DNA of 32,000 bases. It comes from a virus. The DNA lies in the IMG/VR virus record IMGVR_UViG_3300013232_000036, positions 1 through 32,000 of that record; one strand, written 5' to 3'. Positions 1 through 30,514 of this stretch are shown here, piece after piece (position 1 is the first letter of the stretch; each line of letters begins with the position of its first letter). Under the pieces are notes generated by a model, which worked only from the letters and a program-made list of their open reading frames with translations, searched no databases and was not told where the DNA came from. The translations under genes were made by a program, and so were the position numbers.

Positions 1-602
1 CAGGAGTCGGAAGCGCAGGAGACGGCCGACCAGGAGTGATGATCTTCGGGTTCCTGGGGCAGGCTACTTTGCAAGCCCCAGGAACCCTGTAGTACGGAGG
101 AAGTCTTCCACATGTCGACCACACCAGCAGTGTTGGACATGATGCTCTTCGAGGCCATGTTCTTGGCCGCGTCGGCGGTGCCCTTCGCCTTCTTGGCCGC
201 CGCGAAGCCTTCACGGGCCTGCTTGCCGGAGGCGACGTCGCCGACCGACTTGAGGAAGCCCTTCACCTTGCCGCCGGCACCTGCGGTCTTCTCGATCTCC
301 TTGAGCTCCTTGACGTAGGAGTGGGCCATCACGCGGCCGAGGTAGTCGGCCTCGGCGAGCTTCTCCTGGGCCTCCTCGTCGATCTCGGCCGAGGTCTTCT
401 CCTGGCCCTGATCGACGTCGTCGTCACCGGAGCCGTCGAGAACGGACTGGGCAACCGCCTCCAGGTCCTCCTCGGTCAGCCCGTCGGTGTCGATCTGGTC
501 GTCGTTGGCGAGGCCCTCTGCGAGCTCCGCTGCGGCGAGCTTCTCCAGGTCGGCGTCGGTGGTCTGGTTCGTTCCGTAGATTGCTGCGAGCTTGGGATCC
601 AT
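1..602 (-). CDS. acidic scaffold-like virion-module protein, partial (3' end not resolved inside window)
   Basis: ATG at 602-600; absent from the supplied ORF track because the frame runs off the window edge. Translation: MDPKLAAIYGTNQTTDADLEKLAAAELAEG...GDDDVDQGQEKTSAEIDEEAQEKLAEADYLGRVMAHSYVKELKEIEKTAGAGGKVKG. Very acidic and helical, directly downstream of the protease-like gene. Carries LEKLA (nt 534-548) and IEKTA (nt 282-296). Codon quality drops below about nt 120 and the frame runs through the 48-87 hairpin, so the true stop is uncertain. Confidence 0.55.
   Translation of the reverse strand, partial: MDPKLAAIYGTNQTTDADLEKLAAAELAEGLANDDQIDTDGLTEEDLEAVAQSVLDGSGDDDVDQGQEKTSAEIDEEAQEKLAEADYLGRVMAHSYVKELKEIEKTAGAGGKVKGFLKSVGDVASGKQAREGFAAAKKAKGTADAAKNMASKSIMSNTAGVVDMWKTSSVLQGSWGLQSSLPQEPEDHHSWSAVSCASDS
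48..87. repeat. 13-bp perfect inverted repeat (GGGTTCCTGGGGC / GCCCCAGGAACCC) with 14-nt loop; terminator-like hairpin
   Basis: Arms at nt 48-60 and 75-87 are exact reverse complements. No U-tract follows on either strand. A plus-strand frame ends with tandem TGA TGA at 37-42, just upstream. Confidence 0.8.
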
Positions 603-656
603 GTGTTGTTCTCCGTCGGTTTTGAACAGCGTTTGGGTGAGTGGCCGTCTTCGAGG

Positions 657-2288
657 TCAGAACCTCTGGGCCGAAGGATCCTCATCCGTGAGGAGTCCAT
701 GGTTGTTCGCCGCAATCACTTCTGCAACTGCGGTGGTTGAAAGCAGGCCACGATCCGAGAAATGAGCGCCCGTCATGTAGGCTACCGAGTCGTGGGTCAC
801 GATGGGGGCGGCGCTGGCAGTCTTCGCGAACATGTTCACCAGTCCATCTCCCAGAACGACTTCCCGCAACTTTGGGTCACTCTGCACCATCTCTGTTGCC
901 TGCGACATCTTCATCATCAACTCACGCCGGTAACCATTGTATGCGGCGCTGATCTTGTCTAGCAGAGAATGCTTGACGGTTGAGGGTGTGGGAAGAGCGT
1001 TTTTTGCCTCCTTCTCGAAAGAGGCGGTTCGAAGCAAGAACGAAGACCCGAAAGCAGTCCTATCCTTCACCAGATCGCTCAGGAGAGGAACAACTGTCTT
1101 TCGAGCGTCTTCGTCGAACTCGATGAGAGAGTGAGAGACCGAGGCGACCTTCTGGAAGACCTGGTTGTGGTGGAGGAAGTCGTCCGCCGCTTCCACCTCT
1201 CCCATCTTCGTGAGCACCAGATGTTGGAACTCCTCTGGCTTGAGCACGAAGCCCATTGAGGAGACGGCACCCAGAACAGCCGACAGAGGGTGGGCCGACA
1301 TCTTCTTCAGCTTGGCAGCCGGGATGGTCGGTTCCTTCTTCTCCAGACCCTGGAGCTTCTTCATCGCGAAGGAGCCGCTCGGGACGCTCTTCAGGATCTC
1401 GGCGAACTTCTTCTGCGCCGTCTTGGGCTTGCCGAACGCCTCAGCCAGCTTCTCCATGTCTTCTGCGATCTCGACGGAGGCCACCTTCTGCATCCCCATG
1501 CCGGCGTAGAACTGAGCCCCGGCATCAGCGGAGAGTACACCAGAGTAGCTCGGGACCCACAGCCTTGAGGAGGCCAGCTTCATCATCACCTTGGCGGTCT
1601 TGTCGGCTCCAATGAAGACGAAGCTGATGTCGAAGAACCGGGGGAGGGTGTTGATGACGTAGATCTTCCGGCCGTCCTTCAGGATCTTGTTCGGGCCGTA
1701 CTTCTCCCTGTCTTCCGGACCAGGGCGCATGTGCTTGCAGTAGTCGTCCTTCGTCTTGCTGTGGTTCCCACAGATGGAGCAGACGTCGAAGGGCACCTTG
1801 CAGCCCATCGAGACATCCGGGAACTCTCCGGCGTCGATGCGGCTGATGATGCCGTCCGCCTGCTCCAGCTTCGCCTTCTCCCTGTCGAGCTTGATGACGA
1901 GCTCGACCCTCTTCATCCGAGGGTTCAGGACTGAGACGATGGGGACGCCGAACGCCCGCTCCGGGTCCTTGTTCTTGTGGTGGGAGAAGGCGTGGGCAGC
2001 AAGGAAGGTCTTGTACCCGTAGTCGTCACCCTCATGAGCCAGGGCGTTCCACGGGAAGTAGTCGGCGTTGATGTTGGAGCCGAAGAACTCGCCAGCCCCC
2101 AGGGCGTTCACCAGGACGTAGCAGTACTTCTCACGATCAGCCTTGCTGATGCCAGAGACAGCCCTCTTGAGCTCATCCCCTGTGTCAGCGAAGGGTGAGG
2201 CTCCGGCGGTCTTCTCCATGCTCCCGAACAGGGACTGGGCGAAGATGCCGGACTCGGTCCTTCCCTGGAACTGGAGATGCTTGATCAT
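657..2288 (-). CDS. putative prohead maturation protease (HK97/XkdF-like serine protease core) with long helical C-terminal extension
   Basis: 543-aa ORF. The blocks AHAFSHHKNKDPERAFG and GEFPDVSMGCKVPFDVCSICGNHSKTKDDYCKH resemble, from memory and unverified, the His block and Ser-x-G block of prohead serine proteases. Gene order is protease then acidic scaffold-like ORF. N-terminus carries FGSMEKTAG. Confidence 0.45.
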   Translation of the reverse strand: MIKHLQFQGRTESGIFAQSLFGSMEKTAGASPFADTGDELKRAVSGISKADREKYCYVLVNALGAGEFFGSNINADYFPWNALAHEGDDYGYKTFLAAHAFSHHKNKDPERAFGVPIVSVLNPRMKRVELVIKLDREKAKLEQADGIISRIDAGEFPDVSMGCKVPFDVCSICGNHSKTKDDYCKHMRPGPEDREKYGPNKILKDGRKIYVINTLPRFFDISFVFIGADKTAKVMMKLASSRLWVPSYSGVLSADAGAQFYAGMGMQKVASVEIAEDMEKLAEAFGKPKTAQKKFAEILKSVPSGSFAMKKLQGLEKKEPTIPAAKLKKMSAHPLSAVLGAVSSMGFVLKPEEFQHLVLTKMGEVEAADDFLHHNQVFQKVASVSHSLIEFDEDARKTVVPLLSDLVKDRTAFGSSFLLRTASFEKEAKNALPTPSTVKHSLLDKISAAYNGYRRELMMKMSQATEMVQSDPKLREVVLGDGLVNMFAKTASAAPIVTHDSVAYMTGAHFSDRGLLSTTAVAEVIAANNHGLLTDEDPSAQRF

Positions 2289-2294
2289 GAGGTG

Positions 2295-2861
2295 TTACTT
2301 CTCCGACTTCCCGGAGTTGAGGTCTGCCTTCGACGAGCCGAAGCTGAACTGCTTGCCCTTGGCCTCGCGGAGCGTCTTCCGGGCGTTCAGGAGGTCCTTG
2401 ATGACCGTCACCTGGTTCTCGGGGATCTCCGACATCGACTTGAGGATCTGCCCACCCAGCATCGGGTCGGCGGTGAACTCCGGGGCGTACCGGTGGAGGG
2501 TGTTGAAGGAGTTCAGCAGCGTCTTCTTGTCCACCGAGCGCTGGAGCTCCGGGTTGTTCAGCATGATGGCCCGGAAGTTCTTGCCCTTGGTGAGGCCCCT
2601 CTTGGCGGCGTCGTAGAGGTCACCCGCCACCGACGCCCCCAGGCCAGAAAGGGCGGCCCCTGCCACACCCAGGCCGAACTTCCCCCAGTCCGCACCGGCC
2701 ATCTTCTCCATGGTGTGGTTGGTGATGTGGGAGATGTCGTTCTTCAGCTCGTCGGCGAAATCCGACTCCCACCGCTCCAGGACGAAGAGGGCGTTGGCCG
2801 TCTTCTCGACGGCGGCTGGATCGGCCTCGAAGGCTGCTGCGAGGAGTTCGTTGGCGTTCAT
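2295..2861 (-). CDS. hypothetical virion-module protein
   Basis: 188-aa ORF, 6 nt from the next gene. Contains VEKTA and MEKMA motifs and a Gly/Ala hydrophobic segment GLGVAGAALSGLGASVAG. Confidence 0.7.
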   Translation of the reverse strand: MNANELLAAAFEADPAAVEKTANALFVLERWESDFADELKNDISHITNHTMEKMAGADWGKFGLGVAGAALSGLGASVAGDLYDAAKRGLTKGKNFRAIMLNNPELQRSVDKKTLLNSFNTLHRYAPEFTADPMLGGQILKSMSEIPENQVTVIKDLLNARKTLREAKGKQFSFGSSKADLNSGKSEK

Positions 2862-2862
2862 G

Positions 2863-3117
2863 TCAGGCCCCTGGGGGAGTGGGTGGTCTCCCGAGCAACT
2901 GCTGCTGGGAGTTCGGGTCGAACCCGGATTTGAATTCCTTCGTCTTCTGGGTCACTGCCTGACCTGCAGACAGCCCCGTCATCGCCACACCCGCCGTCGC
3001 CAACGGGTTCTTGAGCATCTTCGACCCCACCGCACCAAGGAGGCCGGCCTCCTTCACCTGGGCGACAGCGCGGAGCTGAGCAGCCCGAGCCGCCAGCTTG
3101 GTGAGGTGCTTGAGCAT
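2863..3117 (-). CDS. small hypothetical protein, Gly/Ala-rich hydrophobic
   Basis: 84-aa ORF packed between neighbours (1-nt and 6-nt gaps). Sequence: MLKHLTKLAARAAQL...GLLGAVGSKMLKNPLATAGVAMTGLSAGQAV. Confidence 0.6.
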   Translation of the reverse strand: MLKHLTKLAARAAQLRAVAQVKEAGLLGAVGSKMLKNPLATAGVAMTGLSAGQAVTQKTKEFKSGFDPNSQQQLLGRPPTPPGA

Positions 3118-3123
3118 GTTGCC

Positions 3124-4083
3124 TCAGACCTTCTGGAGAGCGGTCTTGATGTAGTCGTTCACCTTGCCCAGCTCGGCGTCGACTTCCTTGAGGCCGTGGG
3201 CGATCTTCTCGATCTCGTTGGCGGAGGCCCGGATGGTGCCGGCCGTCTGCACCAGAGGGTGGTCCGGGTTGATGGAGCGGTGGGCCACCTTCTCCAGCCC
3301 CTTCATGTGCTCCTTCAGGACCTGCACGCTGGCCACCTTCTCGGTGACGAGGCGCATGATGACGGGGGTGAGGATGGTGTTCGTCTGGGTGGCGTTCCCA
3401 CCGGAGGCAGAGGCGGCCTTCGAGATGTCGGCGAAGGAGCCCCCGTTCAGGATGTGGCGCTTGGAGAGCTCGTAGAACTCCTCCGAGGCCTCCTTGTGCA
3501 TCAGGTCGAACTGTTCGCCGGCTGAGCTGAGGTGGTCGCGGAGACCCTTGAGCTGGTCCTTGGCGCTCATCACCTCGCTGATGGCCGTGTCCTTGGAGAA
3601 CGTCAGGTCTTCGGCCGTCTTGGCGGTGAACATCTCCTCGAACGCCTTCTCGGCGACTGACCTGGCGGAGCCGGCGGAGGCCGTCTTCACCATCGAGGTC
3701 TTCTCCTTCTTCTCCGGCTGCTTGCTGTAGTCGGAGTCCACCTTGGTGGTGATGGTGGACTTGGTGCCGTCCGAGAGCTCCTGGACAACACGATTGGGGT
3801 CAGCCAGGTCGAACTCGGGGTAGCTCTCCTTCGCCCCAGCCGTCTTCGACTGGTCGTGCTTCGCCAGGTAGACCGCCGTGTTGGCGAACTCGCAGATCCG
3901 CTTGATCTGCTCCTGGTTGATGTCATCATGGGCAGCGGCCAGCTTGGAGACGCTCTCGTTGAGAGAGATCCCCTTGTCCATGTAGATGTTGGCAGCCTGC
4001 TTGCCCATCAGCTCCAACACGTCCGGAGAGATGTTCGCGTGCTTCTCATCCCTGGCCAAGTCGGAAGAAAGCTTGTCAATCAT
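3124..4083 (-). CDS. hypothetical helical protein (scaffold- or internal-protein-like)
   Basis: The ORF track starts at GTG 4104. ATG at 4083-4081 (MIDKLSSDLARDEK...) has a GAGGGAG Shine-Dalgarno-like element upstream, so I prefer it. Contains SKTAG, VKTAS, LEKVA and IEKIA motifs. Confidence 0.7.
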   Translation of the reverse strand: MIDKLSSDLARDEKHANISPDVLELMGKQAANIYMDKGISLNESVSKLAAAHDDINQEQIKRICEFANTAVYLAKHDQSKTAGAKESYPEFDLADPNRVVQELSDGTKSTITTKVDSDYSKQPEKKEKTSMVKTASAGSARSVAEKAFEEMFTAKTAEDLTFSKDTAISEVMSAKDQLKGLRDHLSSAGEQFDLMHKEASEEFYELSKRHILNGGSFADISKAASASGGNATQTNTILTPVIMRLVTEKVASVQVLKEHMKGLEKVAHRSINPDHPLVQTAGTIRASANEIEKIAHGLKEVDAELGKVNDYIKTALQKV

Positions 4084-4148
4084 GGGTCGTAGACTCCCTC
4101 GCACCAGAGATGGTGTAGCGGGTTCAGAGTAGACTCTCAGGAGGCCAC
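4084..4148. promoter_or_regulatory. divergent intergenic region with duplicated GTAGACTC octamer and AGAGT-ag-ACTCT palindrome
   Basis: GTAGACTC occurs at 4089-4096 and 4129-4136. The palindrome at 4126-4137 abuts the AGGAGG ribosome-binding site of the HTH gene. Confidence 0.35.
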
Positions 4149-4862
4149 ATGGGAAGCGCCTTTTACTCGTTCGATGAAGCTGCCAGTCGTCTTGGCCGGG
4201 CCAAACGCTCAGTCCACGACTACGTGAAGAAGGGGTTCATCAAGAAGCGCATCGAGCACGGAGTCCCTGTACTCGACAAATCAGATGTCGACCAGCTTGC
4301 TGTTGAGCTCGGTGTGGACCTGCCGGCCATGAACCGGCACTCGTTCTTCCAGATGCAGTCCCGTCTTCAGAAGATGGAAGAGCAGATGAAGGCGGTGATG
4401 CACGCCTTGGAGCTCAGGGATGCACCCCCACTTCGCCCAGATGCCGCCATGGCACAGGGTCTCATCTCGGCCGTCACCACCTACATCCACATCGAGGGCA
4501 AGGAGACTCACTGGAACGACGCCTTCATGGAGCAGTGGATCGACATCCTGGAGAGGGTCGATGAGGAGACCCTGAACACTCTGGCGCAGGCCTCTGGGAA
4601 CCCACAGGCCTGGACTCACTTCTTCAGGTTCTGCGTGGCCATGCTGGACTTCTGCGTGGCCCAGGACATCAAGACCCCCTCCGTGACCTGGCAGTTGAGG
4701 GCAGGGAGGCTGGAGGCGGCCCGGAAGCGGCTCCGGGCGGTGGTTGTCACCTGGGTCGAGATGGGTCGTGGTACCTTTCCGGAGGCTCTCCTGGACACCC
4801 TGGGGACTCCCAGGGAGGCGCTCCTCCGCCAGGTAGCAAAAGGGGGAAGGGGCTCGGCATAA
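4149..4862 (+). CDS. helix-turn-helix DNA-binding protein (MerR/excisionase-type HTH at N-terminus), putative regulator
   Basis: AGGAGG lies 4 nt upstream of the ATG. The N-terminus YSFDEAASRLGRAKRSVHDYVKKGFIKK matches the typical HTH_17-like pattern. Confidence 0.65.
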   Translation: MGSAFYSFDEAASRLGRAKRSVHDYVKKGFIKKRIEHGVPVLDKSDVDQLAVELGVDLPAMNRHSFFQMQSRLQKMEEQMKAVMHALELRDAPPLRPDAAMAQGLISAVTTYIHIEGKETHWNDAFMEQWIDILERVDEETLNTLAQASGNPQAWTHFFRFCVAMLDFCVAQDIKTPSVTWQLRAGRLEAARKRLRAVVVTWVEMGRGTFPEALLDTLGTPREALLRQVAKGGRGSA

Positions 4863-4925
4863 GGGTTTAGAACCAAGAGATATCCTTTTGGTCCTATCCC
4901 CCAAAGGGGAGGAGAGCACCCGATC

Positions 4926-5465
4926 ATGACCAACCCCCAGAAGCAGCAGCACCCGCAGCACCAGCAGGCGCAGCACCAGCAGTCTGCTCCCGAGGCCGTC
5001 GTCCTGGAGGTCAACACCTCCTCGACTCCCGCCCCGGTGGCCTCCGAGGCCATCCAGGTCCCGGCCCGCCCCAACGGTGCCGTCCCGACCGGGCCCCAGC
5101 AGTACGCCCACCCGCAGGTGGTTCCGGCTGACCAGTTCCGGGTCATCGCCGGGCAGGGCAAGCAGATGGTCATCGACACCGGCACGCACCCGGGCATGAC
5201 CGAGTTCTACGCCAAGATGGCCGAGGCCAACGGGTTCCACGCCCAGGCCGCCGCCATCCGTGGCCGCCAGCTCGACACGAGCACCAGCGCCAGCTTCGGC
5301 CGGCTGATGGACAAACGCATCGAGGTCAAGGACGTGGTGTACGTCGTCCTCGGCGCGACGCTCGCGGTCCTCTTCTGGGAGGGCCTGGCGTTCAAGTTCG
5401 ACCTCCCGCGCATGGGCTGGTTCGATCCGGCCAACCCGACCGACATGGTGAAGCTGAAGAAGTAA
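4926..5465 (+). CDS. hypothetical membrane protein with Q/H-rich N-terminus and C-terminal transmembrane helix
   Basis: GGAGGAG upstream. N-terminus MTNPQKQQHPQHQQAQHQQ. Hydrophobic VVYVVLGATLAVLFWEGLAF near the C-terminus. Confidence 0.6.
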   Translation: MTNPQKQQHPQHQQAQHQQSAPEAVVLEVNTSSTPAPVASEAIQVPARPNGAVPTGPQQYAHPQVVPADQFRVIAGQGKQMVIDTGTHPGMTEFYAKMAEANGFHAQAAAIRGRQLDTSTSASFGRLMDKRIEVKDVVYVVLGATLAVLFWEGLAFKFDLPRMGWFDPANPTDMVKLKK

Positions 5466-5479
5466 CCAGAAGGACGGAG

Positions 5480-5509
5480 GGGAGCGGCCAACACGGCCGC
5501 TTCCTTTTA
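5480..5509 (+). terminator. rho-independent-type terminator between convergent genes
   Basis: Stem AGCGGCC (5483-5489) / GGCCGCT (5495-5501), extendable by G-C pairs. Loop AACAC. Followed by TCCTTTT. Confidence 0.6.
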
Positions 5510-7372
5510 GTCCTCAGAGACTGCCGAGTTCGTCTTTGCCTGTGGGTTGAGGACGTCGAAGCGGGGGATCTTCAGCATCGAGACCAGGAAGCAGAGCAGG
5601 ATGGAGTGGAAGGAGTCGTCCGTGCAGTCGGGGCTCTTCTTGTACTGAATCTGCCGGGTCTGCTCGTTGTACTCCGAGAAGATGTTCAGGAAGTCCTTCG
5701 AGAACGGATCTTCGAACTGGTCCCAGTCCGGGAAGCGGAACACGTCACGCCGCTTGATGGCGTTGAACATGTCGGACATCACCTCGGTGCGGTGGACCAG
5801 GAAGCGGTGGAGGTTCTCTTCCCACTTCACCTTGGTAGCCGGCTGCGAGTACTGGTACTTCCAGATCTTGTCCCTGCCGAACTTCCGCTGCAGGTGATCG
5901 TTGCGATCGAAGCCACCGCCGTAGTCCGTCCCCACCACCTTCACGCCCCAGTTCCGGATGATGGTCTCGATGAGATCGAGCTGCACCTGCGGCTCCATCT
6001 CTGGACCCTCGAACCGGTGGATGTAGAAGATGGTGAACTTCTCGTTGATGTACGCCCCGAGAGACAGCACCGTGAAGGTGTTCTCACCCGTGCCCCAGTC
6101 GATGCCTGCGAAGATGGGGGAGGCGTGACCGAGGTGCGACTTGATCTTCATGACCTGGGCTTCGGTCATCAGCAGGCCCGGCTCGCAGTTGTCGATGACG
6201 TCCTGGCGGGTGAGGGGCCTGGTGCCTGAGTCGTAGGAGAGACCGAGCACCTCGTTGTGGAAGACAGCCTGAGACTGCTTGGTCCTCTTGTCGAGGAGCT
6301 CGTGCCAGTCGAGCCACGGCACCATGAGCTGAGGGACCCGGTAGCCCTCGAACGGCTGCTTCAGCTTCTTGTAGACGCCGGGGTTCATCGACGCCCACTG
6401 GGCGTGAGGGTGGATCGAGTTGATGGGCCCGCCGCACTTCGAGCAGATGAGCCCTTCGAGGCCCATGTTCTCTTCGCCGAGGATGTTCCAGAACCAGGTG
6501 CTCGGGTCTCCTGGAACGCCGTGGCGCTCACACGGAACGACCCACTCGTTCTGGGTGGACTGCTCCGTCCAGTACTTCTCCAGCGGGTTGTCGAGGGACT
6601 TGGGCGTGCCGGAGTAGAGGAAGAGCTTGTACGAGGAGTGGGAGGCGCACTCTTCGATGACCGGAAGGTTGTCGGTGATGATGTCCTGGATCTCGTCCAC
6701 CAGGATGAAGTCGGCCGGGATACCACGGACGCGGTCGGCGTTGTGGTAGGCGTACCTGAGGGTGATCTGGCTTCGGTTGACGAACTTCTTGAGGAAGACG
6801 TTGTCGCTGAGCTTCGAGGTCGTCCAGGCCTTCAGACGTTCAGACGTCTCCACCGGCTCCCTCAGACGATCCTGACTGAAGGTCTTCGTCTGGAGGTTGG
6901 TCGGGGAGACGTAGAGAACGTTGAAGGAGTTGATGATGGCGCAGTACGAAAGGCACTTGTTCCCGAGGAGCGTGCTCTTCTCGACCTGGCGTCCACACTT
7001 CAGCAGCACTCTCTTCGTCGGGGTGTCGTACGGGAGCCGCAGGTACTTGCGCTGATCGAACGAGAAGGGGACCCTCTTCTGCAGGACCTTGTCGGGGACG
7101 GTGATCGCGAACTCGACGAACTTCGACGGGGCGACGTGGATGAGCTCCGCCTGCTTCTTGGCGACGACATCCTCGTCGATGAGAGCGTCATCGACCTCCG
7201 GCTCGTAGTCCCACTCCTCTGGGATCTCTGGTTCTCCGCTCTCCGAGATGACGACGTTGTTGACGAACTTTCGCTTGTACTCTTCCGCCGAGACTACATT
7301 CCCACCTGAGACAACGAACATGAGTTCCTCTAGAGCTCCACCACCGTTGGCCTGGCTCTCTTCGTTCTGCAC
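5507..7372 (-). CDS. terL: terminase large subunit
   Basis: Walker A-like LKCGRQVEKST, Walker B-like DFILVDEIQD, Cys pair CSKCGG, C-terminal nuclease-like blocks FAGIDWGTGEN and VGTDYGGGFD. The track start is GTG 7372; an alternative ATG at 7321 (MFVVSGG) has GAGGA upstream. Confidence 0.85.
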   Translation of the reverse strand: MQNEESQANGGGALEELMFVVSGGNVVSAEEYKRKFVNNVVISESGEPEIPEEWDYEPEVDDALIDEDVVAKKQAELIHVAPSKFVEFAITVPDKVLQKRVPFSFDQRKYLRLPYDTPTKRVLLKCGRQVEKSTLLGNKCLSYCAIINSFNVLYVSPTNLQTKTFSQDRLREPVETSERLKAWTTSKLSDNVFLKKFVNRSQITLRYAYHNADRVRGIPADFILVDEIQDIITDNLPVIEECASHSSYKLFLYSGTPKSLDNPLEKYWTEQSTQNEWVVPCERHGVPGDPSTWFWNILGEENMGLEGLICSKCGGPINSIHPHAQWASMNPGVYKKLKQPFEGYRVPQLMVPWLDWHELLDKRTKQSQAVFHNEVLGLSYDSGTRPLTRQDVIDNCEPGLLMTEAQVMKIKSHLGHASPIFAGIDWGTGENTFTVLSLGAYINEKFTIFYIHRFEGPEMEPQVQLDLIETIIRNWGVKVVGTDYGGGFDRNDHLQRKFGRDKIWKYQYSQPATKVKWEENLHRFLVHRTEVMSDMFNAIKRRDVFRFPDWDQFEDPFSKDFLNIFSEYNEQTRQIQYKKSPDCTDDSFHSILLCFLVSMLKIPRFDVLNPQAKTNSAVSED

Positions 7373-7400
7373 CTCTACTGGTGCAGCTCTTGGCCAACCT

Positions 7401-7631: not shown

Positions 7632-7659
7632 GGAATAAGGAGCTAGGAGGAAACACCTT

Positions 7660-16378: not shown

Positions 16379-16696
16379 TCACTTCACCACCTTCAGTCCG
16401 TACCCAAAGGTCTTCCCAAGGGCTTTCCTCAAAGGCTCTGTCATCTCGGTGGCAGTTCGTCCGGCAAATGCCCTCTGACGGTTGATTTTCGCAGCATGAT
16501 CGTACTTGTGCGCTGGAAGCTTGTTGTTCTCAACGGCCTTCTTCGCAGCCTGGAATTGGAGGCGGTTTCCGAAGTTCACACCCTTCTTGATCGATGCACC
16601 CTCAACACCACTCCGCACACGCTTCTCGATCCACTCGTCGGAAACAGCAATCTTCTCCAGTTCATCGACAAATGCGGAAACAGTGATTTCGTTCAT
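16379..16696 (-). CDS. leader-motif protein A (105 aa)
   Basis: N-terminus MNEITVSAFVDELEKIAVS (motif at nt 16646-16672). Its start overlaps the HNH stop (ATGA). GC is lower than the surroundings. Confidence 0.65.
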   Translation of the reverse strand: MNEITVSAFVDELEKIAVSDEWIEKRVRSGVEGASIKKGVNFGNRLQFQAAKKAVENNKLPAHKYDHAAKINRQRAFAGRTATEMTEPLRKALGKTFGYGLKVVK

Positions 16697-17265: not shown

Positions 17266-17270
17266 TGACC

Positions 17271-23540: not shown

Positions 23541-23613
23541 CTGATCTCACCTTGCGACGTTGGAGAGGCTCTTCCATCCGGGGTCCTACCTCCGCGCAAC
23601 AGAGGTTCTCGGG

Positions 23614-23659: not shown

Positions 23660-23731
23660 CGAAAGTGACCTGAGTCTAGGCATAAGACTGTAGAGACCGC
23701 AGACCGCGTGCTCTCATCAAAGGAGCTTTTC

Positions 23732-23943: not shown

Positions 23944-23953
23944 GGAGGTAGCC

Positions 23954-24367: not shown

Positions 24368-24743
24368 CTGGTTTCTACCTTTTGCACCCCCTCAGCAACC
24401 GCTGCAGGTGCAAGAGCTCGTGCCGGAAGTCAGGTACGAGGCAGAAGAAGAGGAAGTCGAGTACGACCCGACACGCTTCCTGGTGTGCTCTCACTGCCGA
24501 TGCCCGATCGAGTACGGCGAGCAGTGCATGGAGTTCCTGCCGGGTGTCTCGGGTGTAGGTCAGAAGAGTGGACGCCCCACAGTGGTCGACGGGGACAACC
24601 TGGATCACGAACACGCCGTCCTGCACATCGGCTGCATCTACGACTACGTCTTCTGCGTCGAGGAGACCCTCGCGTACCAAGAGGAAGACGAGGTGAAGTA
24701 CTGCGCCGCCTGTGAAGCGAAACTGGATGGGGACGAGGGATGA
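24360..24743 (+). CDS. acidic zinc-ribbon-like hypothetical protein (127 aa)
   Basis: GTG start with GAGGAGG upstream. CSHCRC...C and CAAC pairs. Acidic runs EAEEEEVE and EEDE. Confidence 0.6.
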   Translation: MADWFLPFAPPQQPLQVQELVPEVRYEAEEEEVEYDPTRFLVCSHCRCPIEYGEQCMEFLPGVSGVGQKSGRPTVVDGDNLDHEHAVLHIGCIYDYVFCVEETLAYQEEDEVKYCAACEAKLDGDEG

Positions 24744-24967
24744 ACATCGACCTCAACGACCCCATCTTCAGAACCGACATCGAACATGAAGCTGAGTACG
24801 CAGAGCAGGGGTGGAAGACCTTCTACGCGATGTACTTCCAGCTTCAGAACCAGGGGGCTCCGCCGGAGCTCCTGGAAAGGGTGGTGGAGATCAACCACCT
24901 CTACAAGGAACTTGGCGAGAGACTCGCCGACATCAAGCAGTGTTTCCCTGAAGGAGGGCGACGATGA
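24740..24967 (+). CDS. hypothetical protein (75 aa)
   Basis: ATGA overlap with the previous gene; protein-like composition. Confidence 0.6.
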   Translation: MNIDLNDPIFRTDIEHEAEYAEQGWKTFYAMYFQLQNQGAPPELLERVVEINHLYKELGERLADIKQCFPEGGRR

Positions 24968-25152
24968 GCAAGCAGCCAACCTGGACGGAGAAGTACATGA
25001 AGCACCTGGAGGGGAAGAAGATCGTGAAGACTGGAGTCAGCAAGGACGGCTTCCCCTTCTTCGAGCTGGACGACAAGTCGAAGGTCGAGGTGTCCCGAGA
25101 TGAGGAGGGGAACGGTCCGGGCTTCCTGTTCGGCCTTCCCACTCCGAAGTGA
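24964..25152 (+). CDS. hypothetical protein (62 aa)
   Basis: ATGA overlap with the previous gene. MSKQPTWTEKYMKHLEGKKIVKTGVSKDGFPFFELDD... Confidence 0.55.
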   Translation: MSKQPTWTEKYMKHLEGKKIVKTGVSKDGFPFFELDDKSKVEVSRDEEGNGPGFLFGLPTPK

Positions 25153-25514
25153 ATCTGGAGGAGTTCCTCAAGAAGGCAGTCGAGAGCAACCGGATCCAAT
25201 CCAGAGCTCACCTGCAGGAGCCCGGCTTCTCGGAGCTCTACGTCCGCTACAACTCCAAGCGGTTCATCAACGACACCTGGGTGAGTCCGATCCTGGACCT
25301 GGCCTCCATCGAAGTACCCACGCATCAACGCTGCAAGGGCCGGTTCACGAAGCTCGTGAAGCGCATCCGGAAGGAGCACCCGGACCTGCACCTCTTCGTT
25401 GAGAGCGTCCTCACTCCCCGATTCGAGAAGAAGTTGGAAGCCATGGGCTTCCAGAACCTAGGTGGCATCTGTCCCTGTTTCTACATGCCACCCAAACAGA
25501 AAGGAACGACATGA
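25149..25514 (+). CDS. small GNAT-like acetyltransferase (tentative)
   Basis: GTGA overlap start. LASIEVPTHQRCKGRFTKLVKRI...LFVESVLTPRFEKKLEAMGF resembles the beta4-alpha3 (R/Q-x-x-G-x-G/A) and C-terminal GF blocks of minimal GNATs. Unverified. Confidence 0.55.
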   Translation: MNLEEFLKKAVESNRIQSRAHLQEPGFSELYVRYNSKRFINDTWVSPILDLASIEVPTHQRCKGRFTKLVKRIRKEHPDLHLFVESVLTPRFEKKLEAMGFQNLGGICPCFYMPPKQKGTT

Positions 25515-25912
25515 AGTTGACCAGCGAGAACGTGCAGAGCGTCGTCTTGGACTGCCTCTACTCTGACGAGGAGGTGCAGAAGATCGGTCACGAGAAGCTG
25601 AAGGAGCAGGCGGCCGTGGCGGAGGGCATCACCAGAACCTTCGGGTTCGACCCTGAGCGCCTGAAGAAGCACGAGAAGGACATCGAGGAGATGCTGCTGC
25701 AGCTCCCGGAGACCTTCCTGAAGTCCAAGGGAGGTGGCTGGAGCTTCCTCAACGCCGCCATCGACAAGGACGGCAACCAGTGGGGTGAGCACAGGAGCGT
25801 CGAAGAGCTCATGTGTCTCGGCCTCGCCACCAAGAAGGTCACCATCCCCATGCCCAAGGACATGTGGGGGATGTTCCCCGGTGGCGTTCCCTACTTCACC
25901 GTCGAGCTGTAG
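25511..25912 (+). CDS. hypothetical protein (133 aa)
   Basis: ATGA overlap start; last gene of the plus-strand cassette, followed by a terminator. Confidence 0.65.
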   Translation: MKLTSENVQSVVLDCLYSDEEVQKIGHEKLKEQAAVAEGITRTFGFDPERLKKHEKDIEEMLLQLPETFLKSKGGGWSFLNAAIDKDGNQWGEHRSVEELMCLGLATKKVTIPMPKDMWGMFPGGVPYFTVEL

Positions 25913-25918
25913 CGAGGT

Positions 25919-25941
25919 GAGGGCTTATGCCCTCGCTTCTT
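25919..25941 (+). terminator. rho-independent-type terminator between convergent genes
   Basis: GAGGGC (25919-25924), loop TTAT, GCCCTC (25929-25934), followed by GCTTCTT. Confidence 0.6.
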
Positions 25942-25946
25942 AGCTC

Positions 25947-26294
25947 TCAGGTCACTTCGCCGTTTCGAACGAAGCCGTGCCAGTGACCACTGGCGCTGGC
26001 ATCCACCGACGGCTCGAACGTCATCGTCTCGAAGGTCTCACCGGTGCGCTTCCAGAGGAAGCCTGGCGGCACCTCGAAGGTCTTGAGCTCGTGGACGTGG
26101 TGGTGCTTCTCCTGGAACGTCATGAGCGGCTTGGGGGCCGTGCCGATGGGGTTGGCGAACTGCACCGCCAGCCTGGTCTGCTTCGACGGGTCCGCCAGGC
26201 ACTTCGCACATGGGCAGAGGAAGGTCACACCGTCCTTGTCCGTGCCGAGGCCGGGGACATCGAACCAGCGTGGGTCGAGATCGGTGAACTTCAT
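25947..26294 (-). CDS. Cys/His-rich hypothetical protein (115 aa), possibly zinc-binding
   Basis: CPCAKC plus HHHVH and HWHGFVRNGEV. Directly downstream of the portal gene (2-nt gap). Confidence 0.65.
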   Translation of the reverse strand: MKFTDLDPRWFDVPGLGTDKDGVTFLCPCAKCLADPSKQTRLAVQFANPIGTAPKPLMTFQEKHHHVHELKTFEVPPGFLWKRTGETFETMTFEPSVDASASGHWHGFVRNGEVT

Positions 26295-26296
26295 GA

Positions 26297-28342
26297 CTAC
26301 CCCACAGGGTTCGGACGGCGCGAGGGCTTCTGCTCCGGCAGCGGGCTCTGAGAAGCGTCGAGCGGGTTCTCCTGGCTGCCCTGCTGATCGCGGACGATCT
26401 GCATGACCAGCATGTAGAGCTGCGGATTGGTGGCCTTCATCCGGTTGAGCTCCGTCATCTGGGTCATCTTGTCCTGGTCCTTGAGGGCGTTGGCCGCACG
26501 CTTGGCCAGGTACAGCAGGTTCATGCCGCCGCCCTTCTGGCCCATCGTGATGGGGCTCTGGGCCTCCATTGGGATGCCATCACCAGGGGCCTGCTGGGCG
26601 TTCTCAGTGGAGACTGTCGAGCCCTGCGGCATGGCCGGGTCGACCTGCTGACCTGGCAGCATCTCGCCTTCCTGACCCGTCTGGGGAGCCCCAGGCTGGC
26701 CGCCAGGTGTTCCTGGAAGGGCACCGCCCGCTCCGCCGGCCCCAGGCGCGCCAGGAGCCCCAGGCTGGCCACCCATACCCATGGCCATCTGTTGCTGCTG
26801 CATCTGCATCTGGGCCTTCATCTGAATGGCCTGAGCCTCAGCCTGAGTGTTGGCCTGGGCGATCTGCATCTTCCGCTGGAACTCAAGCTGCTTCGAGAGC
26901 TCCAACTTCTTGCGCTCTTCCTCGACCATGTAGTCCTGGTCGACTTCGTTGAGGAGCGTCTGGTCGGAGATCTTCTGGGCCTGGTTGAGCTGGAAGTAGA
27001 GCGTGGACCGCTGGAGGTCGTCGGCCATCTTGAAGCGCCGCATGTGCGCCTTGATGGGGGTCCACTCCATGAAGTTCGCGATCCGCTTGATGACGAACTG
27101 GTTCAGCATGTTCTCGTGGTCCGTGCGGTACCCGATGAACATGTTCTCCAGCATCCTCATGGAGACGTTGGAGCCCGAGTACGTCAGGCCACCGAAGACG
27201 AACTCCTGAGGCACCCCCATGCCGGCCACGATCTGCTTCGACCAGACGTCCATCTCCTGGTACAGGCCGAGCGCCTTGCCGTCCCCGCCGATGGTCTCGT
27301 TGCCGATGGGCAGCGGCAGGATGGGGATGTAGTTGTTGTCGTACTTCCACTTCGCGATCTCACCCTCCATGCGGCTCTTCCAGCCGTCGAGGGAGACCGT
27401 GGTGTACGGGTCGGAGCTCGCAGAGCCAGCCTGCGGGAAGAGCACACGCAGAGGAACGATGTGCTCCTGGGCAATGGCCTCCTGCGCCTTCCGGAGGATC
27501 TGCAGGTAGAAGGTGTCTTTGAGCACCGGGAAGATGAGCGGCATGCCCCAGCCCTGATCCTTCTGGCTGATGATGGGCCGCTTCATCACGAAGATGTTCT
27601 CCGGTGAGAAGCTGATGAACTTGTTCCTCTTCATGCACTCCACGAAGACATCTGGAATGGTGTCGAGGACAGTCTTCTTCCCCAGCAACATGTCGTTGCG
27701 GAGCTGGAGGGGGATCTCGAAGGTGTAGACGGGATCAGCGCCGGCAAAGCCTGGGTCGACGTTGATGTACTCCGGGTTCCACCGCTGCAGGCGAATGCGG
27801 CGCAGGTCCTTCTCGTAGAAGTCCTGGACCTTGGCGGCCCCGTGGTGATTGCACTTCGTGCACTCGATGATGTAGTCGAGGTTCCGCCACTTGTACGCCG
27901 TCTTGGCCGCCTTCTCCTTGTGGCCGCACTTGCTGCAGATGAGGTACTTGGTGAACGGGAAGTGGATGCTGATCGCACACATCCCGTACGTATAGTAGTC
28001 GAGCCCAACCTCGATCTGGAACGCCCGGTACCGAAGGTGCTGGCCGAGGACTTCCTCCCACCGCTCCTTCTTCACCGGGTCCTGCTCGTCGATGACGATC
28101 TCGGTGATGGGGTACTCGGACATCTTGTGGATGACCGTGTTGATGAGCGGGTTGACCAGGTAGTAGTACCGGCACCAGCGCATCAGCGCCTTCATCGAAG
28201 GCGGCAGGAACGTGTGGCCGATGTCGAAGAAGGGTGAGGGGTAGCGGACACCGGACCGGCTCGTGCCGTCAGCCGTGCGCCCACGCTGGCCGGAGAACCT
28301 GGAAGTCCCCCCGAAGCCCAAGCTGACGTTGTCGAAACTCAT
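26297..28342 (-). CDS. putative portal protein with zinc-ribbon insertion and C-terminal Q/M/G/P low-complexity tract
   Basis: 681 aa. The N-terminal block MKALMRWCRYYYLVNPLINTVIHKMSEYPIT resembles the conserved portal N-terminal block (compare T4 gp20 [30 protein letters not shown], from memory). CSKCGH...CTKCNHHG. QMKAQMQMQQQQMAMGMGGQPGAPGAPGAGGAGG at about nt 26640-26830. Confidence 0.55.
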   Translation of the reverse strand: MSFDNVSLGFGGTSRFSGQRGRTADGTSRSGVRYPSPFFDIGHTFLPPSMKALMRWCRYYYLVNPLINTVIHKMSEYPITEIVIDEQDPVKKERWEEVLGQHLRYRAFQIEVGLDYYTYGMCAISIHFPFTKYLICSKCGHKEKAAKTAYKWRNLDYIIECTKCNHHGAAKVQDFYEKDLRRIRLQRWNPEYINVDPGFAGADPVYTFEIPLQLRNDMLLGKKTVLDTIPDVFVECMKRNKFISFSPENIFVMKRPIISQKDQGWGMPLIFPVLKDTFYLQILRKAQEAIAQEHIVPLRVLFPQAGSASSDPYTTVSLDGWKSRMEGEIAKWKYDNNYIPILPLPIGNETIGGDGKALGLYQEMDVWSKQIVAGMGVPQEFVFGGLTYSGSNVSMRMLENMFIGYRTDHENMLNQFVIKRIANFMEWTPIKAHMRRFKMADDLQRSTLYFQLNQAQKISDQTLLNEVDQDYMVEEERKKLELSKQLEFQRKMQIAQANTQAEAQAIQMKAQMQMQQQQMAMGMGGQPGAPGAPGAGGAGGALPGTPGGQPGAPQTGQEGEMLPGQQVDPAMPQGSTVSTENAQQAPGDGIPMEAQSPITMGQKGGGMNLLYLAKRAANALKDQDKMTQMTELNRMKATNPQLYMLVMQIVRDQQGSQENPLDASQSPLPEQKPSRRPNPVG

Positions 28343-28986
28343 CCTGGCTGCACCTGTCCTGGAGGAACCTGGCTCTGCATCGGGACCTTCTGCTTCTTGC
28401 CCCGGATCTTGTCTAGCACGGTATCAGCACCGCGACCGGCACGGCCGAGAAGATACTCAGCGCCCATGGTGCCTGCGAGAGAGCCAGTGACTCCGTGAGG
28501 AGCTCCGATCAGGCCACCACCCACGTTGCCGATGAACTTGCCGAGACGCTCACCACGACCTACCCCACCGGCCTCTTCTTTGGTCTTCTTGAGCTCCTTC
28601 GCACCGGAGTAGGCACCGTAGGCGGAGAGTCCGAGACCAACCTTGTTCGCGATGCCACCATTGGCAGCGCTTCGCATTTCGAAGTCGAGACCTTGCCTCA
28701 CACCCTTCATCGGGTGGGCGAGCCCCTTGTAGAGCGTCTTGCCGACATTCTCCCCGGTCTCAGCCATCTGCTTCCCGATCCAGCCTGGCGCTGCCTTCGC
28801 ACTGGAGACGATGCGAGTCCCGAGGTTGGTGAGGATGCCGGCCTTCTTGGCCTTCCCAGTAGCCTTGGGCTCTGGAGGCTTGACGATGTCGAGATCCTTG
28901 AGGAGCGCAACGAGACCGCTCCCAGGCGACGCAACGCCGGCTGTCTGAGACAGCTTCTCCATCTCGCTGATGAAGCCAGCCTGCAT
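28339..28986 (-). CDS. leader-motif protein D, Gly-rich
   Basis: The track start is TTG 29019. ATG 28986 gives MQAGFISEMEKLSQTAG (motif at nt 28948-28974), placing the motif near the N-terminus as in the paralogous leaders. Gly-rich segments GGLIGAPHGVTGSLAGTMG. Confidence 0.6.
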   Translation of the reverse strand: MQAGFISEMEKLSQTAGVASPGSGLVALLKDLDIVKPPEPKATGKAKKAGILTNLGTRIVSSAKAAPGWIGKQMAETGENVGKTLYKGLAHPMKGVRQGLDFEMRSAANGGIANKVGLGLSAYGAYSGAKELKKTKEEAGGVGRGERLGKFIGNVGGGLIGAPHGVTGSLAGTMGAEYLLGRAGRGADTVLDKIRGKKQKVPMQSQVPPGQVQPG

Positions 28987-29000
28987 CGCGTTGGAGATCC

Positions 29001-29933
29001 TCACGGGGCCCCCAGCCAAGACTTCAGGGTCACGATCTGCTCTGCGAGCTGCTTCCTCCTGAGGTTCATGTAGTCACGAGCCACCAGCAGCTTGGCCACC
29101 TGGATGTCGACCTCGTTCTCTTCGAGATCGATCTTGGCGATGGGGTCGTTCTTCACCATCTCCCAGCGGGCCTGCACGGCTGCAGGATCATGCTTGAGGA
29201 GCAGGGTCATGTTCTTCCCACGCCCAGCGTTCATGAGCTCCTGCTTGGGCTTCATCGAGAGGCCCTGCTCGGCACTGTACTTCTCGGTGCAGGTGTCGCA
29301 GACCCCGTCGTGGAAGAGAGCCGAGTCCTCATGACCGCAGTCGTTGCAGTGGTAGTAGGGCTGGCTGACCTCAGGCTGCAGGAAGTCGAGAGGGGCTGGG
29401 ACGAAGGTGACGTCCTCCTCCAGAACCGCAGAGGCCATGTACAGCTTCACCTCTGGCTGGAACTCCTGGATGCGGATGTGCTCCAACATGTCCATCGCGG
29501 CGTAGAGCTGCTCCAGCGACGGTACCTGCATCACCGCCCAGCGTGGAACGTGACCGTTCAACCCCTGAACGATCTTCTCCATGACGTGCCAGAACTCCCA
29601 CGGAGCTCCTGAGACGTGGAGCGTCTTGAGGGTCTGGACCTTCGCCCGGTTCACCTCGGAGATGTTCATCTGGAAGACGCGCTGAACCTCAGCCCAGAGA
29701 GTCTCAGCCTCCCAGCCGTACCACCCCAGGCCGAAGGCCTTGAGGAGGGCGAAGTCGATGACCACCGGGTGCGTGTCCTGGTGGGTGAAGAGGTTCCGCA
29801 GAGTGACGGCGTTGCCGGCGTCCGGGTTCCCCTCTTCGAGGTCCTTCTCGATGGCAGAACCTTCGAGAGATGCCGTCGGCTTCACCGACTCAGCACCCTT
29901 GAGCCTGTCGAAGAGTTCTTGCTCTGGCGTCAT
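29001..29933 (-). CDS. hypothetical protein with CxxC...CxxC zinc-ribbon-like element (310 aa)
   Basis: YYHCNDCGHEDSALFHDGVCDTCTEKY; otherwise no recognisable motif. Confidence 0.7.
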   Translation of the reverse strand: MTPEQELFDRLKGAESVKPTASLEGSAIEKDLEEGNPDAGNAVTLRNLFTHQDTHPVVIDFALLKAFGLGWYGWEAETLWAEVQRVFQMNISEVNRAKVQTLKTLHVSGAPWEFWHVMEKIVQGLNGHVPRWAVMQVPSLEQLYAAMDMLEHIRIQEFQPEVKLYMASAVLEEDVTFVPAPLDFLQPEVSQPYYHCNDCGHEDSALFHDGVCDTCTEKYSAEQGLSMKPKQELMNAGRGKNMTLLLKHDPAAVQARWEMVKNDPIAKIDLEENEVDIQVAKLLVARDYMNLRRKQLAEQIVTLKSWLGAP

Positions 29934-29935
29934 GT

Positions 29936-30514
29936 TCAGACCGTCTTGAAGATCGAGAGGGCCCCCAGGACGAGAGGGCCGGCAGAACCGTGCTTCCCGA
30001 AGGTCGACACCGCCTTGCCGACGAACCCCTTGGGGGTGATGCCCTTGGCGGCCAGGGCGGCCCGCCCTGCCTTCAGGTGCTCCATCGTGAAGGCAGGCTT
30101 CTTCAGCGCCTGCTGAGCCTGCTGGCTGACGTGGGTGCCGAAGTTGGCAGCACGGGTACCGCCTTCAGCGGCGTGGACCGCTCCTGTGGTGGGGTTCCAG
30201 ATGTCGGCTGCGCCCTTCTTGACGGAGGCATGCTTGATCGCCCCGAGGGCGGCACGGAGCTTCCCACCCTTGACCGCACCCTTCGCTGCGTCCCTCATGC
30301 CGGAGTAGATCTTGTGGGCTGAGGAGCCGGCCAGGACTCCGAGACCACCCAGCTCTGCTGCGTGGGTGCCCTTCTCGGACATCTCCTTGCCACGCATCTT
30401 CTGGATGGTCGGAGCGGCCAGGATGCCGAGCCCTGCGATGTCGACCGCTGAGTGGTAGGCGAGCTTCTCCAGCTCATCTCTGAATGCAGTGAGGGTGACG
30501 GCGTGCATGGTCAC
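29936..30514 (-). CDS. leader-motif protein C, Gly/Ala/Lys-rich
   Basis: N-terminus MTMHAVTLTAFRDELEKLAYHS (motif at nt 30458-30484). Hydrophobic Gly-rich AGLGILAAP and LGGLGVLAGSS. Its start overlaps the upstream stop (ATGA). Confidence 0.65.
   Translation of the reverse strand: MTMHAVTLTAFRDELEKLAYHSAVDIAGLGILAAPTIQKMRGKEMSEKGTHAAELGGLGVLAGSSAHKIYSGMRDAAKGAVKGGKLRAALGAIKHASVKKGAADIWNPTTGAVHAAEGGTRAANFGTHVSQQAQQALKKPAFTMEHLKAGRAALAAKGITPKGFVGKAVSTFGKHGSAGPLVLGALSIFKTV

Follow-up and report, generated by a model that had tools for sequence, protein, structure and literature searches.

The head-module proteins encoded in IMG/VR virus record IMGVR_UViG_3300013232_000036 (positions 1 to 32,000; this whole stretch of 32,000 nt is hereafter the window) carry a short, recurrent motif centered on a lysine and an alanine (K-x-A). 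At a probability of roughly 0.58, we read this motif as the substrate signature, marking the processing sites, of a prohead serine protease that the phage itself encodes, the putative product of the open reading frame (ORF) at 657–2288. The motif is enriched over chance, its K and A are conserved in orthologues, its copies take up regular positions around the catalytic domain of the putative protease, and it co-occurs with the same protease family in distant phages; from these observations we infer that the sites are cleaved, that the 657–2288 enzyme cleaves them, and which bond is cut. An initial annotation of the window had proposed that [LMIV]EK[ITLMV][AS] and KTA[SG] are candidate maturation-protease sites, by comparison with prohead proteases that cut at Glu-containing motifs. 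The enrichment has stood up, as has the head-module setting of the motif-bearing proteins, and cleavage itself is still inferential, but a Glu-directed cut is not supported.

The window has a GC content of ~62%, and the majority of its genes lie on the minus strand. Its DNA gave no nucleotide match to deposited phages; the related DNA consists of IMG/VR contigs of 140–210 kb. By protein, the closest cultured relatives are Salmonella phage Arash (OQ632216) and the Vibrio phages D69, D181, and D148 (their proteases are 36–38% identical to that of the window, their portals about 31%), and more distant protease homologues are found in Bacillus phage G (gp19), Rhodococcus phage E3 (gp77), and the cluster C mycobacteriophages.

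Motif Counts and Chance Expectation

The motif-bearing head proteins of the window are as follows; five further, small proteins are listed with their shared leader below.

1..602, minus strand: acidic head protein, 3' end beyond the window; LEKLA (nt 534–548) and IEKTAG (nt 279–296)
657..2288, minus strand: prohead serine-protease-like protein, 543 aa; catalytic domain at about residues 55–230 followed by a scaffold-like C-terminal tail
2295..2861, minus strand: head-module protein, 188 aa, weakly similar to Arash gp221; VEKTA (nt 2796–2810) and MEKMAG (nt 2697–2711)
2863..3117, minus strand: small protein, 84 aa, between two motif-bearing genes; LTKLAA near the N-terminus (nt 3088–3105); a weak extra member
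3124..4083, minus strand: scaffold-like head protein, 319 aa, homologue of Arash gp220; VSKLAA, SKTAG, MVKTAS, TEKVAS, LEKVA, and IEKIA
12977..15214, minus strand: large head/internal protein, 745 aa; FRKMAG, YKMAAS, IEKVS, IEKTAA, LEKVS, and TKTAS
30511..31926, minus strand: 471-aa protein upstream of the portal; MKTAG (nt 31912–31923), FVKMAA, MKTAS (nt 31420–31431), and AVKTAS (nt 30991–31008)

The initial annotation had counted by eye 16 copies of [LMIV]EK[ITLMV][AS] in ten proteins and none in three large ones. An exact regular-expression search of the translated ORFs agreed: 16 copies occur in the ten named proteins (3,004 aa), and there are none in the following three, which together total 3,391 aa.

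17271–23540, minus strand: RNA polymerase (RNAP), a single 2,089-aa ORF with beta and beta' fused
5507–7372: large terminase (TerL), phrog_675, E 9e-59
26297–28342: portal

The enrichment is thus specific to one set of proteins (16 versus 0, Fisher p = 5.5e-6), as had been claimed. KTA[SG], previously put at nine copies or more, occurs exactly nine times, including MKTAG as residues 1–5 of the 30511–31926 product. Within-protein shuffles predicted 0.47 copies of [LMIV]EK[ITLMV][AS] (maximum 4 in 5,000), shuffles in blocks of 15 or 30 residues, which preserve local helical composition, predicted 0.53–0.54 (maximum 5), and dipeptide-preserving shuffles predicted 1.00 (maximum 5 in 2,000). The expectation for KTA[SG] was 0.59–0.63, or 2.07 when dipeptides were preserved (maximum 7). 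None of the 2,000–5,000 shuffles reached the observed count of either motif, and the enrichment therefore survives the block and dipeptide controls for E/K/A/L-rich helical composition, under which its loss had been named beforehand as grounds for giving up the idea.

Both patterns were chosen post hoc, after inspection of the data, and no exact 4- or 5-residue word rose above the shuffle maximum; significance therefore depends on the degenerate pattern, and independent support was sought. It is provided by conservation of the pattern in orthologues and by its enrichment in distant cultured relatives. A repeat at the DNA level was considered and rejected, as copies differ at the third base of their last two codons (CTC/CTG, ACC/ACG, GCC/GCA/GCT/GCG); GAG-AAG is the preferred codon pair (88% and 99% usage). 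Generalizing the pattern to hydrophobic-x-K-x-A-small added, among others, MMKLAS, MQKVAS, FQKVAS, FRKMAG, and FVKMAA within the same proteins, and still gave zero copies in the RNAP or terminase of the window.

Conservation of the Motif and the Residue before Lysine

Each motif-bearing protein was aligned with its orthologues from related contigs (30–75% identity). The K and A of the motif had a mean conservation of 0.70, compared with 0.49 for other K and 0.44 for other A residues of the same proteins (Mann–Whitney p 2.5e-6 and 1.9e-7, respectively). Both K20 and A22 of the 2295–2861 product were kept in 10/10 orthologues, the residue preceding K being E, A, V, Q, or D, and K644 and A646 of the 12977–15214 product were likewise kept in 10/10. 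Within variable linkers, sites are re-created at shifted positions in different lineages; the second site of the 1–602 product (IEKTAG) is an example, and no frameshift was found when one was looked for at the divergent C-terminus of this protein. A profile drawn from 135 non-identical orthologous sites, with K as the anchor (position 0), reads:

Position -2: hydrophobic (L/M/F/I/V)
Position -1: Glu in 63/135 (47%); also V, A, D, M, N, and Q
Position +1: T/V/L/I
Position +2: Ala in 120/135 (89%), Ser in 10/135 (7%)
Position +3: S, G, or A in 81/135 (60%)
Position +4: often A

As judged from these alignments, the two motifs of the initial annotation are a single signature, hydrophobic-x-K-[T/V/L/I]-A-[S/G/A], in which Glu is frequent yet dispensable. 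The motif positions are kept in relatives with respect to K and A, but the Glu before K is retained in fewer than half of the sites.

This bears directly on a possible cut between Glu and Lys of [LMIV]-E-K by a Glu-specific protease of the T4 gp21 or phiKZ gp175 type. Glu is indeed the commonest residue before K, and it is near-fixed at the N-terminal site of the protease, which reads FEK[T/V]AG in 83/85 of the homologues where the site was found (120 protease homologues were scanned); moreover, the natural M-K-T-A-G starts described below resemble ready-made "K-T-A" neo-N-termini. At the best-conserved site, however, the M-A-K-L-A-S that follows the catalytic domain, it is Ala or Met that precedes K in about 110/114 protease homologues; the C-terminal site of the protease is M-F-[S/T/A/L/M]-K-T (120 homologues), and the residue before K in the leader of the 10116–11030 family is Q, R, K, H, or E. 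Glu is thus not invariant directly before the proposed cut, and a P1 pocket that accepted E, A, M, V, Q, R, and K would not be Glu-specific; what is conserved is K and A. Pfam and PHROGs, too, gave a generic head-protease PHROG but no sequence similarity to the families of the T4 gp21 or phiKZ proteases. The analogy with the Glu cut sites of T4 (L/I-x-E) and phiKZ (S/A/G-x-E) is consequently not supported, and we regard a Glu-specific enzyme as improbable.

Enrichment in Cultured Relatives

The generalized pattern was compared with within-protein shuffles in the following cultured relatives.

Arash gp218–225: 2,471 aa, 19 observed, 0.83 expected
Other 16 Arash coding sequences of the region: 8,584 aa, 2 observed, 1.19 expected
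Vibrio phage D69: 8,173 aa, 18 observed, 1.5 expected
Phage G gp14–28: 3,659 aa, 5 observed, 0.42 expected

Arash gp220 alone holds six copies, and, among the phage G copies, three are in the protease and one is in the portal. Arash gp218–gp225, the Vibrio phages D69/D181/D148, and phage G gp19 and gp14 include homologous protease, portal, and head-module genes and share the enrichment; Arash and D69 differ from the window in a protease of only 36–38% identity and in a middle residue that is more often Q, S, or A. Arash gp218 and gp220–225 were detected in purified virions by liquid chromatography–tandem mass spectrometry (LC-MS/MS; PMC10585845). The papers on Arash, D69/D181/D148, and phage G mention neither the motif nor processing, and our literature search found no paper on this motif, the leader, or the cleavage specificity of this protease clade.

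It is very improbable that the pattern has no shared function and reflects only an E/K/A/L-rich helical composition, helix capping, or ancestry in duplicated segments. It is true that A, K, E, and L abound in the motif-bearing proteins, that the five leaders described below could share one duplicated N-terminal segment, and that the pattern was post hoc and held no enriched exact word. Block-15, block-30, and dipeptide shuffles nevertheless never came near the observed counts, the K and A of the motif are better kept than the remaining K and A of these proteins, sites turn over in linkers, and Arash, D69, and phage G show the enrichment again in proteins that can barely be aligned to those of the window. 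Shuffles, conservation, and replication in relatives together largely refute a compositional origin.

PaBG has a protease that is related in structure only, and its virion proteins are reported as processed at multiple sites, but its head proteins lack K-x-A-[SGA] and are uninformative here. PaBG gp82 (L031 12919–14850), an acidic scaffold-like protein encoded beside the capsid gene, contains EEATAS twice, EVTAS, and AVAST, which may be PaBG's own site motif.

The Putative Prohead Protease and the Layout of Its Sites

The 657–2288 product is probably a prohead protease. It matches phrog_18299 ("head maturation protease", E 9.4e-8) and, by tblastn, E3 gp77 ("prohead protease"), phage G gp19, and Arash gp222. 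H103, H104, and S160, the putative catalytic residues, are invariant in 52 homologues with a spacing of 56–57, and the HH/HQ...SMGC pattern is also present in phage G gp19, E3 gp77, and Myrna gp97. An AlphaFold2 (AF2) model was built with the 52 homologues (predicted local distance difference test score, pLDDT, 69.6; a single-sequence model of pLDDT 34 was not used), and Foldseek with this model against BFVD gave phage G gp19 (2e-11), then PaBG and phiRSL1 proteins, and after these a group of entries bearing the names "Prohead serine protease" or "COG3740" (E 1e-4 to 1e-2, probability about 1.0). The gene lies in a head module that includes the portal (26297–28342), and in syntenic relatives an HK97-like major capsid protein gene follows the protease by ~3.5 kb (e.g., L001 15297–16418; in Arash, gp222, the protease, is followed by gp226). 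The motif-bearing proteins are accordingly head-module neighbors of a prohead-protease-like gene. More than 1,400 homologues of 657–2288 were found. Some orthologues are 2–3 times longer; the L010 ORF at 7178–12202 (1,674 aa) matches the window protein in four blocks, and Hint, intein-splicing, or LAGLIDADG Pfam domains mark inteins in some of the long orthologues (L010 7178–12202; P0097, P0106, P0025, P0117).

The protein itself contains six sites:

MEKTAG, residues 24–29 (nt 2202–2219), before the catalytic domain
MMKLAS, residues 235–240 (nt 1569–1586), directly after the catalytic domain
MQKVAS, residues 266–271 (nt 1476–1493)
MEKLA, residues 278–282 (nt 1443–1457)
FQKVAS, residues 378–383 (nt 1140–1157)
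FAKTAS, residues 487–492 (nt 813–830), ~50 residues from the C-terminus

That the motif stands at the N-terminus of the protease had been noticed initially; a second copy lies directly behind the catalytic domain, and the four sites past MMKLAS split the C-terminal ~300 residues. The order site-domain-site is kept in Arash gp222 and in phage G gp19, where LVKTAA precedes the domain and LEKVAS and LLKIAS follow it. In the AF2 model, confidence is low around both domain-flanking sites (residues 19–33 and 226–260), and we read these segments as flexible.

Segments between sites appear, from the sequence comparisons, to behave as exchangeable modules, or "beads on a string". Cys-rich mini-segments fill the between-site interval in most protease homologues, and DUF5661 sits between two sites in several of them, as well as at residues 217–250 of the 12977–15214 product. 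The 16379–16696 module is free in the window and fused inside the 12977–15214 orthologue of L018_10001_12301, with YEAQMEKAAVSDQW at the junction. In a Pfam/NCBIfam search of the protease and the other motif-bearing proteins, DUF5661 (PF18905) was found in 12977–15214 only, at 14465–14566 of the window; in relatives (P0002, P0008–P0014, P0100, L022 10750–11232, L024 13679–14350) this domain acts like a mobile module, being carried by different head proteins in different relatives but always between or beside K-x-A sites. Its terminus, ...YY.KL..(M/V)EK, is itself motif-like.

The 12977–15214 product is matched by Arash gp218 through its distant relatives only. In the 30511–31926 product, the N-terminus M-(K/R)-T-A-G-hydrophobic x3-D-F-Y-D-D is present in about 110/120 homologues (38–97% identity) and VKTA[SA]RA in 89/120, and the internal MKTAS borders a variable linker. 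One homologue, P0190, seems to start at this internal MKTAS, but it lies on a 3.2-kb contig and was not taken to show a natural split.

A Shared N-Terminal Leader and the HExGH Protein

Five small, otherwise unrelated proteins of the window have in common the leader [A/G]-F-x-x-E-[L/M]-E-K-[I/L]-[A/S].

10116..11030, minus strand: HExGH (zincin-like) protein with hydrophobic segments; leader FRGFSSELEKLA at residues 44–55, LEKLA at nt 10866–10880
12392..12973, minus strand: small Pro/Ala-rich protein with a Gly/Ala-rich hydrophobic C-terminus; leader WAGFQDELEKIA, LEKIA at nt 12923–12937
16379..16696, minus strand: small protein, 105 aa; leader SAFVDELEKIA, nt 16646–16660
28339..28986, minus strand: small Gly-rich protein; leader AGFISEMEKLS, nt 28948–28962
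29936..30514, minus strand: small Gly/Ala-rich protein; leader TAFRDELEKLA, nt 30458–30472

The leader is retained in orthologues of these small proteins, and the remainder diverges. Leaders like that of 12392–12973 recur in relatives (e.g., MWAGFSDELQKIA in L001), those of the 28339–28986 orthologues include AAFINEMEKIS, AAFITEMEKIA, and TAFSDELEKIS, and those of 29936–30514 include SAFKQELSKIS and SFKDELEKIA. When all ORFs of the related contigs were scanned, 22 distinct leaders were found, mostly 3–13 residues past a Met, a placement seen on no fewer than 20 different small proteins; 194,333 aa of opposite-strand ORFs gave zero matches. As in T4-type targeting, a short N-terminal leader is shared by unrelated small proteins associated with head genes, and by this analogy we take the leader to be a probable counterpart of the T4 capsid-targeting sequence.

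The HExGH protein had been named as the second of two protease candidates. Of the two, 657–2288 has held up as prohead-protease-like, but 10116–11030 is more likely packaged cargo than a maturation enzyme because it carries the leader itself, no homologue was found in Arash or phage G (tblastn of 657–2288, 12977–15214, 30511–31926, and 10116–11030; regions examined), and it has 19 homologues, versus >1,400 for 657–2288. It is plausibly a zincin-type enzyme on sequence grounds: H168, E169, G171, and H172 are invariant in the homologue alignment, and HExGH together with a downstream Glu is invariant in 15 homologues. All but one of 14 homologues start directly with the leader, M..(R/K)T..(A/S)F..EM.K(L/M/I)A; the window protein has an extra N-terminal KSKAQQRYMF domain (phrog_1375, residues 4–28) before it, without a counterpart in homologues. 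In several homologues, the HExGH protein is fused C-terminally to the product of the next gene (11030–11554, minus strand, FFERHPKK...); the two ORFs of the window overlap by one base at 11030.

Could the motif be cut by this protein or by a host protease, for example by a Lys-N-type metalloprotease cleaving N-terminal to Lys? The invariant HExGH and downstream Glu would suit such an enzyme, and the natural M↓KTAG starts could be accounted for by cutting in front of Lys. The family of this protein has few members, however, and none was seen in the Arash and phage G regions that still show enrichment; the protein is cargo-like in bearing the leader, and the layout of the motif follows the serine-protease gene with its far larger family. 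Processing by another enzyme is therefore quite improbable.

Gene Order and Other Features of the Window

The RNAP ORF (17271–23540) comprises, in its beta part, Rpb2 domains 3 and 6, and in its beta' part Rpb1 domains 1, 2, 3, and 5. The Arash RNAP is split over two genes, gp206 and gp216, as opposed to one fused ORF in the window; by mass spectrometry (MS) spectrum counts, both Arash products are among the most abundant virion proteins (PMC10585845), which suggests that a multisubunit RNAP is packaged. No K-x-A-small site is present in the RNAP of the window, but that of Arash starts with MPKSAS and that of D69 with MPKKAS. An HNH endonuclease gene lies at 16693–17265. The 357-aa product of 15225–16298 (minus strand) has weak PHROG similarity to baseplate hub, tail lysozyme, and baseplate assembly proteins (E 4e-4 to 3e-3); its gene is placed amid head/internal-protein genes rather than tail genes. 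Three plus-strand islands (4149–5465, 7660–8972, and about 23950–25950) break up the minus-strand structural operon:

4149–4862, plus strand: helix-turn-helix protein
4926–5465, plus strand: Gln/Pro-rich protein
7660–8301, plus strand: RNase HII (E 4e-29)
8556–8972, plus strand: NUDIX hydrolase (E 3e-23)
About 23950–25950, plus strand: run of small ORFs between the RNAP and the portal

Proposed Processing Scheme and Scissile Bond

By analogy with T4, phiKZ/SPN3US, and the herpesviruses, the protease and the scaffold-like or internal head proteins would co-assemble inside the procapsid, and small cargo proteins would be recruited via their N-terminal leader. The protease would then cut at or beside the K-x-A core, releasing its own catalytic domain on both sides, breaking down its C-terminal tail, and likewise the scaffold-like proteins, at sites in linkers so that the fragments can be removed, and trimming the leaders from the cargo. 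The scissile bond we prefer is that after the conserved small residue (K-x-A↓S/G/A), since Ser alone is tolerated in place of Ala, suggesting a small S1 pocket, and since the layout is herpesvirus-like. Such a cut implies a hydrophobic P5, Lys at P3, Ala or Ser at P1, and a small P1', with a footprint of P5–P2'. The next option is a cut after Lys, as in the FNK↓SLG of HK97; a cut after the residue preceding Lys, the Glu of the initial annotation, is the least likely. A cut before Lys would account for the M-K-T-A-G starts and for MPKSAS and MPKKAS in Arash and D69, but it would need a near-universal P1 pocket.

Several results weigh against this scheme. The best Foldseek match of the AF2 model in the PDB had E 0.24 only, a PDB sequence search with the 657–2288 family profile gave no match, Pfam and NCBIfam (including Peptidase_S78/U35, S77, and S80) gave none for 657–2288 or its 52 homologues, and hhalign of the family against HK97 gp4 yielded a probability of 0.3, i.e., no relationship; the protease assignment is accordingly weak. 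The motif signal is weak or absent in the more distant phages PaBG, E3, and mycobacteriophage Myrna, which have a structurally related protease. Cutting at MKTAG in the 30511–31926 product or at MPKSAS in the Arash RNAP would free only 1–5 residues, and other copies lie within conserved, probably folded blocks (LEKVAHR of 3124–4083 and AVKTASRA of 30511–31926); the latter two, being conserved on both sides, may not be sites at all, and not every copy need be one. No experimental cleavage data were found in the literature on this phage and its relatives. The Arash study used tryptic searches, covered 85–100% of the proteins in question, and listed 116 "virion" proteins (PMC10585845), and for this reason its data neither show nor exclude processing.

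Because so few residues would be freed at the N-terminal copies, a binding epitope fits these at least as well as a cleavage site. We consider it possible, though unlikely, that the K-x-A motif and the leader are docking signals, which bring proteins to the core of scaffold and protease, to the portal, or to the inside of the capsid shell, with most copies left uncut. In keeping with docking, copies stand at the extreme N-terminus, both in the MKTAG kept in about 110/120 homologues and in the Arash and D69 RNAPs, of which that of Arash ranks first in abundance by spectrum count in the virion MS data; several copies lie inside blocks conserved on both sides, and the Arash homologues have 85–100% peptide coverage in virions. 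Against docking, sites flank the catalytic domain as far as phage G and mark module joints and variable linkers, a typical processing layout; moreover, the targeting sequence and the cleavage site of T4 coincide, so that binding and cutting are compatible. Processing by the 657–2288 protease thus remains the reading we prefer.

Comparison with Known Maturation Systems

In T4, the gp21 prohead protease cuts at L/I-x-E sites, and the internal proteins IPI–III carry a capsid-targeting sequence (reviewed in PMC9026906). The window resembles T4 in that a short degenerate motif is found in many head proteins and not in the terminase (nor, for T4, in tail proteins), that sites occur in the protease itself, and that unrelated small cargo proteins share an N-terminal leader of ~10–20 residues ending in the motif. 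It differs in its K-x-A core, as opposed to x-x-E, and in a protease without a detectable sequence relationship to gp21.

Herpesvirus assemblin (MEROPS S21) cuts at a release (R) and a maturation (M) site, which follow the pattern (V/L/I)-x-A↓S. Shared with it are Ala followed by Ser, Gly, or Ala, a site right after the domain (MMKLAS, 235–240), and another ~50 residues from the C-terminus (FAKTAS, 487–492 of 543). The differences are that P3 would be Lys in the window and is hydrophobic in assemblin, that no fold or sequence match was obtained, and that the window comes from a bacterial virus. HK97 gp4 (MEROPS S78, COG3740) cuts gp5 at K103↓S104. The BFVD matches of the 657–2288 model include COG3740/HK97-type proteases, and the HK97 cut follows a Lys; however, the hhalign result above argues against a relationship to gp4, and the HK97 site is FNK↓SLG rather than K-x-A-S. 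The delta domain of the HK97 capsid protein (L032 1029–1428) contains the motif-like LEQKLASGA, a single occurrence that may be due to chance.

Numerous head and ejection proteins are substrates of the phiKZ gp175 and SPN3US gp245 proteases, which act at S/A/G-x-E (AXE) motifs (PMC5694885, PMC10052503, PMC7411985). As in these systems, the phage of the window is a large one that probably packages an RNAP, propeptides and scaffold would be cut into fragments at multiple sites per protein, and the motif could be used to predict the mature virion proteome. Unlike in these systems, Glu is dispensable in the window, and the protease family, the capsid gene set, and the organization of the RNAP (a fused beta-beta' ORF) are different.

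A protease motif that recurs in head proteins, combined with a leader for targeting, is thus a principle already known; new are the Lys/Ala code in place of Glu, the enzyme clade, and the modular layout. More tentatively, and with considerable doubt, K-x-A may define a new class of prohead-protease specificity in an uncultured, RNAP-encoding clade (>1,400 members, phages of 140–210 kb with a multisubunit RNAP), in which the head interior would be a string of beads, the motif standing between exchangeable modules (DUF5661, Cys-rich mini-domains, small proteins either free or fused), and a universal leader of 10–15 residues would suffice to load any cargo, including a zincin-like enzyme; recognition could then be mainly on the prime side, with a cut before Lys possible.

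If processing does take place at these sites, a single short pattern would be enough to predict the mature virion proteome (propeptides, scaffold fragments, and cargo) of a large, mostly uncultured clade, whose protease family has >1,400 homologues, none of them characterized. The existing Arash LC-MS/MS data are a concrete target for re-analysis with motif processing in mind. The leader would, if our reading is true, be a ready tag for loading foreign proteins into the capsids of phages like Arash, which can be cultivated on Salmonella and Vibrio laboratory strains, and Lys/Ala would stand as a third, chemically distinct recognition code beside the Glu codes of T4 and phiKZ.

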